From: a virus
Lineage: Duplodnaviria; Caudoviricetes
DNA: 64,000 nucleotides
Direction: 5' to 3' (one strand)
Virus record (IMG/VR): IMGVR_UViG_3300009183_004565
Part shown: piece by piece, positions 35,057-41,344 of the stretch
How the letters are laid out: each line of letters opens with the position of its first letter
How positions within the stretch are numbered: the first letter of the stretch is position 1
Program-made: the position numbers and the translations under genes
Notes under the pieces: model-generated
Seen by the model: the letters and a program-made list of their open reading frames with translations, nothing else
What the model was told of the DNA's origin: nothing
The model's database searches: none

Positions 35057-35135
35057 TGCTATAATACAGGTATAAATAATTGTGTAGGATGCTTCGGGTC
35101 CTATAAAACTTGCTTATTTTTAAGGAGAAACTATG
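35057..35135 (+). promoter_or_regulatory. dnaK leader: extended -10, late promoter, UUCG hairpin and ROSE-like SD-occluding hairpin
   Basis: TGCTATAAT 35057-35065, TATAAATA 35071-35078, gtaggat-g-c-TTCG-g-gtcctat 35084-35104, CTTGCTT 35109-35115 complementary (bulged G) to AAGGAG 35122-35127. Confidence 0.7.
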
Positions 35136-37019
35136 AGTACAATCATTGGTATCGATCTTGGTACCACCAATAGCTGCGTAGCAGTAATCGAAAACGGAAC
35201 CCCAAAAGTAATTGAAAATTCAGAAGGCGCACGTACTACACCTAGTATCGTTGCCTATACTGCTGAAGAGATTATTGTGGGAGCCGGTGCAAAACGTCAA
35301 GCAGTTACCAATCCAAAAAACACAATCTATGCGTCCAAGCGTTTAATAGGGCGTAAATTTACGGAACAGGCAGTTCAAAAAGATATTGATCTCATGCCTT
35401 ACAAGATCATCGAAAGCGCGAACGGCGATGCATGGGTGTCAGTCAACGACACGGAACTAGCACCTCCACAAATCAGTGCCGAAGTGCTTCGCAAAATGAA
35501 GAAGACCGCAGAAGACTATCTGGGTCATGAAGTAACACAGGCTGTAATTACTGTGCCTGCTTACTTCAATGACAGTCAACGACAGGCAACCAAAGATGCC
35601 GGAGCAATTGCTGGACTAGAAGTATTGCGTATTATCAATGAGCCAACTGCAGCAGCATTGGCATACGGAGTCGATAAAAATGAAAAAGCTGATCGCAAGA
35701 TCGCTGTGTACGATCTGGGTGGTGGTACCTTTGATGTTAGCATTATTGACATTGCTAATGTGGACGGTGATAAGCAATTTGAAGTCCTTTCCACCAATGG
35801 TGATACATTCCTAGGCGGTGAAGACTTTGACCAACGCATCATGGATTACTTGATCACTGAGTTTAAGAAAGAGTCAGGCGTTGATCTTGGTCGAGACGTT
35901 ATGGCACTGCAACGTCTAAAAGAAGCTGCAGAACGTACCAAGATTGAATTGAGTAACAGCACACAAACAGATGTGAACTTGCCTTACATCACAGCAGATG
36001 CTACAGGTCCCAAGCACATGAACATCAAGATGACTCGTGCTAAACTGGAAAGCCTAGTTGATGAATTGATTCAGCGCAGTATTGAACCTTGCCGTGTTGC
36101 AATGAAGGACGCAGGTGTCGTAGCCACGGACATCGATGAAGTTATCCTTGTTGGTGGTATGACACGTATGCCACGGGTTCAGGAAGAAGTTGAAAAGTTA
36201 TTTGGACGAGCACCACGTCGTGATGTCAATCCAGATGAAGCAGTAGCGGTTGGTGCAGCAGTACAAGGTGCTGTACTAGGTGGTAGCCGTAAAGACGTTC
36301 TATTACTTGATGTGACCCCACTAAGCCTAGGTATTGAAACCATGGGCGGCGTGATGACGAAACTAATCCAAAAGAATACCACTATTCCTACCAAGCATAG
36401 CCAGGTATTCTCTACAGCCGAAGACAACCAGCCGGCAGTAACTATCAAAGTCTATCAAGGCGAACGCGAACTTGTACAATATAATAAAACATTAGGTGAG
36501 TTTAATCTAGAAGGAATTCAACCTGCTCGACGTGGTGTACCGCAAGTAGAAGTCACGCTGGATGTTGACGCCAATGGTATTCTTAAAGTAAGTGCCAAAG
36601 ATAAAAGTACTGGCAAAGAAAACCGGATTACTATCAAGTCGGACAGTGGTCTAAGCCGAGAGCAGATTGAAGAAATGATTCGCGATGCCGAAGCTAATGC
36701 AGATGCAGACACAAAGCAACGTGAATTGATCGAAGTACGTAACCAAGCAGATGCAGTTGTCCACAAGATTCAAACTGATATGAAAGAAGCGGAAGGCAAG
36801 CTTTCGGAAGATCAGACGAAACAAATAGATGAGGCAATTGCCAACCTCAACAAGGCAATAGCAGAAACAGACAAAGAACTAATTACCACCAAGGTATCTG
36901 AGTTACTTGTTGCTGCGAATATTATTAATGAACTACAACAGCCGCAGACTACAGAAGAACAGCCCGAGCCTAAGGCCGATGACAATGTGGTTGACGCTGA
37001 ATTTAAAGAAACGAAGTAA
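35133..37019 (+). CDS. dnaK: Hsp70 chaperone DnaK
   Basis: [50 protein letters not shown]-terminal VVDAEFKE. Confidence 0.99.
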
Positions 37020-39210: not shown

Positions 39211-39244
39211 TTATTAAAAAAAGTTTATTCGAATACATATTATT

Positions 39245-39583
39245 ATGAATAAACTTTTGGCAGCTACCCTACTAGCATCCATAGCCGTGGCAGCTACAGC
39301 CACTCCTAGAACAAGACAGATACAGGTAATGTGTGGTAGTTTCGAAGATGTTGAAAAAACCATGGAAAAATATGGCGAAAAAATGGTAATTGCTACACAA
39401 GCTCCCGACGAACAAACTGTTAACATGGTATATGCTAATTTTGAAACAAAAACTACCAGTTGGTTTGTACACGATTTACGCACAGATGAGTATTGTATGA
39501 TGGGGGTAGGTAAAGAAATTTATATACCCGAGGATAGTCCATTAAAAGACGCCCCAATTGGAACAAGAACAAAATACAAATAA
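39245..39583 (+). CDS. Secreted hypothetical protein
   Basis: Signal peptide MNKLLAATLLASIAVAATA; two Cys. Confidence 0.65.
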   Translation: MNKLLAATLLASIAVAATATPRTRQIQVMCGSFEDVEKTMEKYGEKMVIATQAPDEQTVNMVYANFETKTTSWFVHDLRTDEYCMMGVGKEIYIPEDSPLKDAPIGTRTKYK

Positions 39584-39606
39584 GCCTGGTTATTCCAGGT
39601 TTTTTT
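39583..39606 (+). terminator. Intrinsic terminator
   Basis: gcctgg-ttatt-ccaggttttttt. Confidence 0.75.
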
Positions 39607-39628
39607 GTGGCTATAAAAGGAGCATATT

Positions 39629-39706
39629 ATGAGTTGGTTTGCACATAGACCCCCTAAGAATCCCCCAATACCCCCCGCACCGACCCGTCCCCCAACCAGA
39701 ATGTAA
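39629..39706 (+). CDS. 25-aa proline-rich micropeptide (not in ORF track)
   Basis: MSWFAHRPPKNPPIPPAPTRPPTRM; AAGGAG SD at 39617-39622, 6 nt before ATG. Confidence 0.55.
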   Translation: MSWFAHRPPKNPPIPPAPTRPPTRM

Positions 39707-39770
39707 TAAATACACGGTATTCGATAACTATTGGTTCCATCAATTATAACAACAGAGGAATCGAGAAGAC

Positions 39771-40550
39771 GTGGATCCGTTAACCCTGTTTGCCCTGGCA
39801 AACGGTGCTGTAAAACTTGTCAAAGAAGGTTGTAAGCTTTACAAGGATATCAAAGGAGCGGCCGGGGATATCAAAGATGTCCTCAAGGATCTTGACGACC
39901 AATTCCATACTACATTCAAAGACCGAGCACCTACTACAGCCGAACACAATCAGTACATTCAAGAAAAAAACCGCATCATCAACCTAAACAAACAGGATGG
40001 TGAAACAGCTAGTATGTACACACAGATTGGCGAACAGCTAGGTGTATACTTTGACAATCTTTATAAATGTCACGCAATATTTGAGGAAGAGGAACGCCGT
40101 AGCAAAACTGAAGTTTATCACGGTGAGGATAGCGTAGGTAAACGTGCTTTACAACGTGTACTACTCAAAAAGCAATTGGAAGCCATGGGGGCAGAGTTGC
40201 GTGAGATCATGGTGTATCAAAGTCCACCAGAGCTAGGTGCATTATGGACTGAAGTTCAGGCAATGATGGAAGTAGTTGGCAAAGAACAGGCAGTGGCAAT
40301 TGGTATAGAAATGAGAAGAAATGCCGAAGCTGCTCGTCGCAAACGCAAACACATGAAAAAGATCAAGTACAAAGTATTGTGTTGGAGCATGAGTTCCTTG
40401 GCTGTACTTTATCTGTGTTGGTTAATCTGGGCTGTTGTAGAAATTCGTGTTGCAGAAAAACCCGAACTTGGAAGATGTTTAATACCCAAAGGAACTCCTG
40501 GATATAATTGGTATAATAATTTAAAGTGGGTTGATTGCGATATCAAATAA
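39771..40550 (+). CDS. Hypothetical membrane protein
   Basis: MDPLTLFALANGA N-terminus, helical body, C-terminal TM helix; AATAAATA upstream. Confidence 0.65.
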   Translation: MDPLTLFALANGAVKLVKEGCKLYKDIKGAAGDIKDVLKDLDDQFHTTFKDRAPTTAEHNQYIQEKNRIINLNKQDGETASMYTQIGEQLGVYFDNLYKCHAIFEEEERRSKTEVYHGEDSVGKRALQRVLLKKQLEAMGAELREIMVYQSPPELGALWTEVQAMMEVVGKEQAVAIGIEMRRNAEAARRKRKHMKKIKYKVLCWSMSSLAVLYLCWLIWAVVEIRVAEKPELGRCLIPKGTPGYNWYNNLKWVDCDIK

Positions 40551-40591: not shown

Positions 40592-41344
40592 ATGTTTAAA
40601 ACTATCTCAGCAATACTTATTCTCGCCACCAGTTGTACCTCCTCAGCAATTGAAATTCAAGCTAAGTCTTGGTTAATAGCCGATGGTGATGGGCATATAC
40701 TCGAACAACAGAGTATTGATGTTGTTCAACCTATTGCTTCTATAACTAAATTAATGACTGCAATGGTATATTTAGATAGCAATGAGAATTTAAAAGAAAA
40801 TGCCAAAACTAAGTTCAGAGGATTAACTGTTAGCAAACACAAACTATTAGAATTGGCAATTGTTCATTCTGACAATCAAGCAGCTGATATGTTGTGTAAA
40901 ATTTATCGTCGAGGATACAAAGCCTGTATTGATGATATGAATCATAAAGCACAGGTGTTAGGCATGTACAATACTGCTTTTTATGACAGCACCGGTCTGG
41001 ATAATCGCAATGTCAGTAATGCCATTGATTTGATTAAACTATTACAAGCAGCTGAACGATATCCCGAAATAGTTAATGCAAGTAACAAAACTATAGTTGA
41101 ACTTTTAAAAAGCAAAAAGAAAAAAACAATAAATCTAAAGTATACCAATACCAATCCTTTAGTGGCCAAATATAATGTAGTAGTTAGTAAAACCGGGTAT
41201 GTACAAGCCAGTGGCGGCTGCTTAGTGATGAGTGTATATATTGACGGTAAAAAAAGATTATTTGTAGTTTTGAATAGTAAAACTACAAGAACAAGAATTC
41301 GAGATATGGAAGTACTTATATTGTCAGAGCTATATAAAACATAA
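40592..41344 (+). CDS. D-Ala-D-Ala carboxypeptidase/endopeptidase (peptidase S11, PbpG-like)
   Basis: ASITK (SxxK), SDN (SxN), SKTG (KTG); signal peptide. Confidence 0.9.
   Translation: MFKTISAILILATSCTSSAIEIQAKSWLIADGDGHILEQQSIDVVQPIASITKLMTAMVYLDSNENLKENAKTKFRGLTVSKHKLLELAIVHSDNQAADMLCKIYRRGYKACIDDMNHKAQVLGMYNTAFYDSTGLDNRNVSNAIDLIKLLQAAERYPEIVNASNKTIVELLKSKKKKTINLKYTNTNPLVAKYNVVVSKTGYVQASGGCLVMSVYIDGKKRLFVVLNSKTTRTRIRDMEVLILSELYKT

Follow-up and report, generated by a model that had tools for sequence, protein, structure and literature searches.

Does a reading frame of only 25 codons in the DNA of a tailed phage (Caudoviricetes) encode a peptide with a function of its own, and if it does, on what might such a peptide act? 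The frame lies in a stretch of 64,000 nucleotides, which was analysed at its full length and is called the window here, and it stands out by its composition. Of all 966 open reading frames (ORFs) of at least 20 amino acids in the six frames of the whole window, this micro-ORF has the highest proline fraction, 0.36, followed by 0.21 for the runner-up. Its DNA contains 40% C, compared with 18.5% in the window, with four runs of five or six C and a GC skew of -0.5. The preliminary description of this locus had reported nine prolines with four Pro-Pro pairs, and both counts hold for MSWFAHRPPKNPPIPPAPTRPPTRM, where the pairs occupy residues 8-9, 12-13, 15-16, and 21-22; the AAGGAG sequence that it took as a Shine-Dalgarno (SD) site is also in place (Table 1). 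The peptide is 36% Pro, has a net charge of +4, and contains neither a signal sequence nor a hydrophobic or transmembrane segment. The mRNA around the micro-ORF is predicted by RNA folding to be unstructured, and the fold of positions 39575-39800 is no more stable than those of shuffled sequences (z = -0.99). The micro-ORF can be considered more than a chance reading frame because its frame, start, SD site, and stop are conserved in independently found relatives.

Table 1. Positions of the features discussed in the text; positions without a prefix are those of the window, and those with a locus prefix are positions in relatives.
Feature	Position	Strand	Remarks
Sigma-70-like promoter candidate TTAAAA-18-TATTAT, before p112 gene	39214..39243	+	Consensus scan only
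p112 gene, 112-aa secreted small alpha/beta protein	39245..39583	+	Upstream partner of the "MSWFAH" subfamily
Terminator-like hairpin (8-bp stem) and T-run, between p112 and micro-ORF	39582..39609	+	Kept in all p112-linked relatives
Shine-Dalgarno site AAGGAG	39617..39622	+	6-nt spacer to the ATG at 39629
Micro-gene MSWFAHRPPKNPPIPPAPTRPPTRM	39629..39706	+	25 codons and TAA (39704-39706); core MSWF-x-H-[KR]-P-x-[KR]-[NY]-P-P
ATAAATAC, T4-late-promoter-like box of p259 gene	39706..39713	+	Starts on the last base of the stop codon
5' leader hairpin of p259 gene (GGTTCC ... GGAATC)	39729..39764 (about)	+	Overlaps the ribosome-binding region; RNA fold, conservation
p259 gene, 259-aa protein with one C-terminal transmembrane helix	39771..40550	+	Downstream neighbour here, not in all relatives
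Context iv ORF within tail-fibre-like gene, other frame	L100:2770-2856, L135:4792-4884, L145, L150, L154

The micro-ORF is flanked by two genes that we call p112 and p259, neither of which has a match in Pfam or PHROG. The p112 product carries a signal peptide and is predicted by AF2 to adopt a small alpha/beta fold (pLDDT 77); comparison of this model with the PDB and the AFDB clusters gave no informative fold match. The promoter candidate in front of p112 is the likely origin of the transcript that reaches the micro-ORF, while sigma-70-like consensus sites in the region are no more numerous than in shuffled sequences. The hairpin between p112 and the micro-ORF is likely an internal attenuator of a p112/micro-ORF unit, so that the p112 transcript would probably carry the micro-ORF as an attenuated second cistron, reached by read-through. 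As the micro-ORF sits directly 3' of this terminator-like structure and lacks a separate promoter, it may be expressed at a low level in the window. On the other side, the box and leader hairpin that precede p259 are also found in several relatives that lack the micro-ORF, and the micro-ORF is therefore outside the unit of the p259 gene itself. Across the window, the counts of TATAAATA and ATAAATAC show no excess over chance, and because the box is not enriched we can only infer that it is a promoter. The preliminary description had credited the phage with its own DnaK and bS21, and both are indeed encoded just upstream of the micro-ORF; farther upstream, the encoded proteins comprise bS21, a full-length Hsp70/DnaK whose gene occupies positions 35133-37019, Hsp20, ClpS, a cytidylyltransferase-like protein, and an Rv2179c-like exonuclease. 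In the p112-linked subfamily, the micro-gene lies within this dnaK-hsp20-clpS block in every locus with an upstream flank that is long enough.

The p112 protein itself contains a short stretch that recalls the micro-peptide. Its residues 70 to 76 (positions 39452-39472) form a conserved beta-strand, T-S-W-F-[IV]-H-D, in which Ser-Trp is invariant, and this strand resembles the MSWFAH N-terminus of the peptide, with 15 of 17 bases identical at the DNA level. A five-residue match in a neighbouring gene is unlikely to arise by chance (about 1e-4). A common origin and a common partner are both possibilities.

Whether the frame is coding was judged on relatives that were fetched through the neighbour genes, with the ORF itself left unused. 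In this way 80 of 510 IMG/VR stretches with p259 relatives were kept, and p112 gave 12 IMG/VR stretches. All p112 loci in this unbiased set have the same hairpin and SD site, followed by an ORF of 22 to 26 codons that starts with MSWF (or MTWF), and they include the diverged in-frame copies MSWFNHRKPHPNPP.., MSWFSHKSKRYPTPP.., and MTWFVHRPKRNPLPP.. As these products of 22 to 26 aa differ by whole codons, the insertions and deletions are multiples of three. For the block from W to PP, pN/pS is 0.28 in the ORF frame versus 1.25 and 1.76 in the other frames (22 unique unbiased sequences), and for the last five codons of the forms ending in RM it is 0.15. Codon changes among the relatives exchange AGA and CGN for Arg, and Ser, Phe, His, and Pro codons vary at the third position. 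The C-runs are not conserved, as at least four runs of four or more C occur in just 3 of 50 distinct members and none at all in 15 of the 50. The relatives thus retain the frame and drop the C-runs, which is the reverse of what the preliminary description had named in advance as grounds for abandoning the ORF, and which is what a coding gene does. From this pattern of variation, the 25-codon frame is a real, previously unannotated gene under purifying selection at the protein level.

A wider family was collected by scanning IMG/VR and the JGI metagenomes at the DNA level with a degenerate pattern, MSWF-x-H-[KR]-x3-N-P-P, which matched 66 IMG/VR contigs and 83 JGI metagenome stretches. The pooled set comprises 171 matches and 93 distinct peptides of 21 to 59 aa. 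As the pattern fixes the first 13 codons only and the matches were ascertained on that block, the invariance of the N-terminal block is partly built in and is overstated in this set. In the unbiased diverged long forms, His6 and NPP can be lost, while MSWF and the basic residues stay. Lys and Arg swap freely at positions 7 and 10, with Lys in about half of the unbiased members. Past residue 13 the tail is free of the pattern, and there the median composition is 36% Pro, 17% Lys plus Arg, and 4% acidic residues. All 50 distinct members that were examined have 25 to 40% Pro and a net charge of +3 to +8; an SD-like site precedes 45 of them, and their stop codons are TAA (42 members), TAG (7 members), or TGA (1 member). 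The C-termini differ more, since P-x-R-M is present only in the p112-linked subfamily and the others end in PSR, PQR, FYK, KKK, and so on; HRM or NRM ends are found in 31 of the 93 peptides.

When 1.84 billion representative proteins were searched with a profile, the motif was recovered in no more than five proteins of 30 to 36 aa, all of them stand-alone, and therefore it is not a fragment of a larger protein family. The matches of this search include variants with Tyr instead of Asn11. One unnamed protein was found when a 45-aa long form was used as the query, and neither the ESM Atlas nor an exact cluster look-up gave a named relative. Five short forms had no match in Pfam or PHROGs, nor did five long forms in Pfam, and the family profile hit no PrAMP (proline-rich antimicrobial peptide) among the PDB chains, where only chance matches to antibody framework 2 appeared (E of 0.6 to 1.1). 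The degenerate DNA pattern had no match in 185,579 prokaryote genomes (one per species). Among GenBank phages, the DNA of the locus had no match and tblastn with the peptide found none, although the low-complexity filter may mask matches in the latter search. The sequencing runs that contain the locus DNA are described as freshwater or lake metagenomes. The cultured Kyanoviridae Melnitz-3, HTVC008M, and P-SSM4 share the cytidylyltransferase neighbour gene of some family members, and no MSWF ORF is present anywhere in these three genomes. From these comparisons, the micro-gene belongs to an undescribed and fairly widespread family of micro-proteins of uncultured freshwater T4-related phages, and in these lytic phages it is present as a single copy. 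Genes of 20 to 30 codons escape standard annotation, and this one, with about 170 matches that are mostly or all from freshwater or lakes, is in no family library.

Family members occur in at least five genomic contexts with unrelated downstream genes, and in two of these contexts the ORF is enclosed by another gene that is read in a different frame. The genes that follow it encode p259, autotransporter-like, cytidylyltransferase-like, M48-like peptidase, or nucleotidyltransferase-like proteins, and the distance to the next gene ranges from 4 to 239 nt, or the two overlap. In context i, the "MSWFAH" subfamily follows p112 and is itself followed by p259, an autotransporter-like protein, an M48-like peptidase, or unknown proteins. 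One group in this context has a second terminator-like hairpin right after the micro-ORF, which gives p112 and the micro-ORF the appearance of a single unit that contains an attenuator. Two loci have a gene for a membrane fatty-acid-desaturase-like protein (HRYHHH and HNNHH boxes) between p112 and the micro-ORF (L017:3006-3734 and L025:3004-3723), and in both of them the micro-ORF starts with MLYWFAH. In context ii, the Lys-type subfamily, which has a sigma-70-like promoter upstream, lies between a DUF6321 gene and a large cytidylyltransferase-like gene, the latter 4 to 33 nt away. A search for HSP70 on the Lys-type fragments found it in one of five, all five fragments being incomplete. In context iii, the Arg-type subfamily stands ahead of a nucleotidyltransferase-like gene. 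At three loci (L136:3377-3390 on the minus strand, L151, and L155:1700-1722) the ORF begins 4 to 6 nt after a TAAATA box and has no SD site, and for this reason the ORFs of context iii are possibly leaderless, or nearly so, and read from a late transcript.

The two remaining contexts are overprinted ones. In context iv, the ORF lies within a tail-fibre-like gene whose own frame reads [DN]ELVQ[TA]Q.P.E.., and the first 17 residues of the micro-frame are identical in all five loci. All nine variable sites in these 17 codons are third positions of the micro-frame and synonymous there, and seven of them alter a residue in the host frame; four of the nine are in codons free of the pattern (p of about 0.01). 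In one further locus, L156, a separate 44-aa gene ends exactly where the micro-ORF starts, a layout that suggests a fusion of neighbouring genes across the micro-gene. In context v, long forms of 44 to 68 aa occupy the +1 frame in the 3' tail of a gene for a CsgG-like lipoprotein (Pfam CsgG, E = 2.5e-47), with curlin-repeat-like genes downstream. When loci were gathered by the CsgG domain only, 17 of 80 had the +1-frame MSWF ORF. Four members could be aligned without gaps, and their variable sites fall on 23 third, 10 first, and 6 second positions of the micro-frame. Here the second positions of the micro-frame are the third positions of the host frame, and with 23 versus 6 variable sites the micro-frame is therefore the constrained one. 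The long forms add a conserved segment, ..SSPM-x-EK-x-L-x-E-x-K.., that is helix-like, and a Lys-rich end. One long form stands alone, after a gene for a small secreted Cys-rich protein.

As the comparison of loci demonstrates at the sequence level, the micro-gene moves among genomic contexts as a unit and keeps its own ribosome-binding site. To be overprinted twice independently inside larger genes is rare and is clear evidence of function. If the peptide is the PrAMP-like effector considered below, the gene would be valuable enough to persist where other genes overgrew it in another frame.

On balance, we lean somewhat towards an autonomous gene that would encode a free peptide acting in trans, and away from a leader of the next gene. 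We favour this reading because neither a downstream gene nor an RNA switch is kept while the peptide is selected along its whole length, and because some members exceed the capacity of the ribosomal tunnel and carry an extra conserved segment. The conserved C-terminal segment of the long forms would not be needed by a leader that has ribosome stalling as its sole task. Very small phage peptides with such a mode of action exist; T4 Stp, the 26-aa product of a T4-type gene of about 25 codons, acts in trans on a host protein. Stp is not proline-rich and has no similarity in sequence or composition to the micro-peptide. In the mechanism that we propose, the peptide would dock via its N-terminal block (MSWF, His6, the basic residues 7 and 10, and [NY]PP) on a conserved protein machine, which may be of the cell or of the phage. 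The rest of the peptide, which is Pro-rich, basic, and free of acidic residues, would form an extended polyproline tail, and in the long forms an amphipathic Lys-rich helix would follow this tail.

By composition and architecture, the peptide may work most like a PrAMP that is made inside the infected cell. Candidate targets would then be those of the known PrAMPs, DnaK and the ribosomal tunnel, which are cytoplasmic. The cleft of Hsp70 proteins favours aromatic or hydrophobic cores with basic flanks and without acidic residues. By this analogy the substrate cleft of Hsp70/DnaK is a tentative candidate, the ribosomal tunnel is a more doubtful one, and a further target that we have yet to think of is no less likely than either DnaK or the ribosome. 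The most far-reaching version, in which a lytic phage makes a PrAMP-like effector whose MSWF-x-H-[KR] block plugs the Hsp70 cleft or the ribosomal tunnel of its host, we regard as conceivable but rather improbable. If it is true, a phage with its own DnaK and bS21 could re-route the proteostasis or translation of the host, and the family would add a new class to the known host take-over factors and offer a natural source of peptide inhibitors that act inside cells.

The resemblance to PrAMPs, which had been proposed from the window peptide, is thus one of composition, the same composition as that of the peptides by which animals shut down bacterial DnaK and ribosomes. PrAMPs are defined by at least 25% Pro and a net charge of at least +1, and a PRP motif is indicative but not essential (PMC7736402, Box 1). 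All 50 distinct members have the Pro content and charge of this definition, whereas the PRP motif is present in only 2 of the 50 and absent from the window peptide, and the pharmacophores of both type I and type II PrAMPs are missing. With apidaecin, drosocin, oncocin, Bac7, and pyrrhocoricin, the micro-peptides share a size of 18 to 35 aa, 25 to 40% Pro, and a charge of +3 to +8, with almost no acidic residues, no Cys, and no hydrophobic helix, and they combine a short conserved pharmacophore-like part with a variable Pro-rich and basic remainder. The members of the A-type subfamily also end, as apidaecin does, in Arg and a hydrophobic residue. In contrast to PrAMPs, the micro-peptide is encoded by a phage and would be made in the infected cell, without signal or propeptide, and its conserved N-terminus with Trp-Phe-x-His is unlike that of any known PrAMP. 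Type I PrAMPs have Pro-Arg repeats around a (Y/R)L motif, in which Arg cannot be replaced by Lys (PMC4797290). The micro-peptides have no Pro-Arg repeats and no YL core, and unlike Bac7, which needs Arg, they take Lys or Arg.

A different role for the same sequence would be one in cis, and we consider it unlikely. Here MSWF-x-H-[KR]-P-x-[KR]-N-P-P would be a nascent-peptide element that pauses or arrests the ribosome at its diproline, in an EF-P-dependent or RAPP-like manner, and the released peptide would have no role. Such an arrest would alter the fate of the mRNA, the access of Rho to the C-rich RNA, or the translation of overlapping or neighbouring genes. The idea is possible because the conserved block resembles a short arrest motif. 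Between the initiator Met and the invariant PP, the block is about as long as a nascent chain that fills the upper tunnel, and its R/K-N-P-P recalls the RxPP arrest cores (PMC12992588). As in RAPP/RGPP and SecM arrest peptides, a basic-x-Pro-Pro sequence follows a stretch with aromatic residues in a very small ORF. Moreover, in its richness in C and its lack of structure the RNA resembles a Rho-loading site, and one group of relatives has a terminator-like hairpin directly 3' of the ORF. However, no cis partner is conserved, as downstream genes, spacing, and following structures all vary; nothing like the fixed partner of a leader was found, and a hairpin follows the ORF in that one group only. 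The p259 gene has its own promoter-like box and leader, also in several relatives without the ORF, and residues past the putative arrest point are under selection (pN/pS 0.15, and the helix of the long forms). RAPP peptides tolerate no substitute for their Arg and require Ala or Gly at position 2, with Ser, Asp, or Pro partly accepted (PMC12992588), but the micro-peptides use either Lys or Arg and have Asn or Tyr at position 2. The RAPP motif is also located at the C-terminus of monitor proteins that are secreted or membrane-bound and are encoded upstream of the gene that they regulate, whereas the micro-peptide has the motif at residues 10 to 13, is soluble, and is not followed by any fixed gene. 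The alternative raised in the preliminary description, an EF-P-dependent stalling leader, is unlikely on the same grounds, as the ORF is not tied to a downstream gene, lies upstream of p259's own box, and occurs inside other genes.

Equally unlikely, in our opinion, is that the peptide serves as partner or regulator of the adjacent envelope proteins, namely p112, p259, or the autotransporter-like, CsgG-like, or curlin-like proteins. The "MSWFAH" subfamily always comes after p112 and is probably on the same transcript, the long forms overlap the 3' end of the gene for the CsgG-like lipoprotein, the stand-alone long form follows the gene of a secreted protein, and the p112 strand described above recalls the N-terminus of the peptide. 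On the other hand, p112 and the CsgG-like protein are exported, while the peptide has no signal or hydrophobic segment, and other subfamilies adjoin DUF6321, cytidylyltransferase-like, and nucleotidyltransferase-like genes, none of which is an envelope gene. The identical N-terminal block across contexts argues for one shared target and against an envelope partner.

The closest parallel drawn at the outset, mimicry of apidaecin or drosocin by the C-terminus, did not survive comparison with the relatives, and we hold the corresponding mechanism to be very unlikely. In this mechanism, the C-terminal R-M of a type II PrAMP would sit at the peptidyl-transferase centre and trap release factors on terminating ribosomes. 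Type II PrAMPs have a C-terminal pharmacophore, PRPPHPRL, with an Arg-Leu warhead, and gene-encoded apidaecin is active when it is expressed inside bacteria (PMC11549390, citing Baliga 2021). The Pro-x-Arg-Met end of the subfamily, with its free carboxylate, is strongly conserved, as its pN/pS indicates. When anchored at the end, however, PTRPPTRM of the window peptide agrees with PRPPHPRL at only 3 of 8 positions. The Arg24-Met25 end is found in the window peptide and its subfamily but is missing in sister sequences that end in Arg and in all other subfamilies, so that close relatives lack the final Met or have quite different ends. Across the family it is the N-terminus that is conserved, whereas type II PrAMPs vary at this end, and a global trap for release factors would also strike the translation of the phage itself.

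That there is no gene at all, but a C-rich DNA or RNA element (an i-motif or G-quadruplex tract, or a Rho-loading site) that is open by chance, would fit the C-runs and GC skew of the window copy but is almost certainly wrong, since few relatives keep these runs and the variation falls on third codon positions, with the amino acids kept through changes of Arg AGA/CGN, Ser, and Pro codons. Three other candidates were rejected: a proline-sensing attenuator, as there are no biosynthetic genes; the precursor of a RiPP, as no modifying enzyme is conserved beside the micro-ORF across contexts; and a mimic of ClpS N-degrons, as Ser would be N-terminal once Met is removed.

The neighbour genes have features of their own. 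The leaders of p259 relatives (for example, those of L024, L038, L072, and L080) combine a box of the ATAAATA type with a hairpin GATTCC..GGAATC, and this pair is shared by the group to which the window belongs and by several relatives that are more distant and have no micro-ORF. The pair may serve as a conserved element that controls the translation of a late gene. Adjoining p259, at positions 40592-41344, is a gene for a D-Ala-D-Ala carboxypeptidase (Peptidase_S11, E = 1.7e-36) with a signal peptide, which adds to an envelope-directed block. Several T4-like contigs from IMG/VR and JGI (L200, L208, L179, and L243-L275) encode a CsgG-like lipoprotein, which in many cases has an SH3-like domain at its C-terminus, and after it curlin-repeat-like proteins, and it is possible that these genes together form a phage-borne curli-type secretion set.
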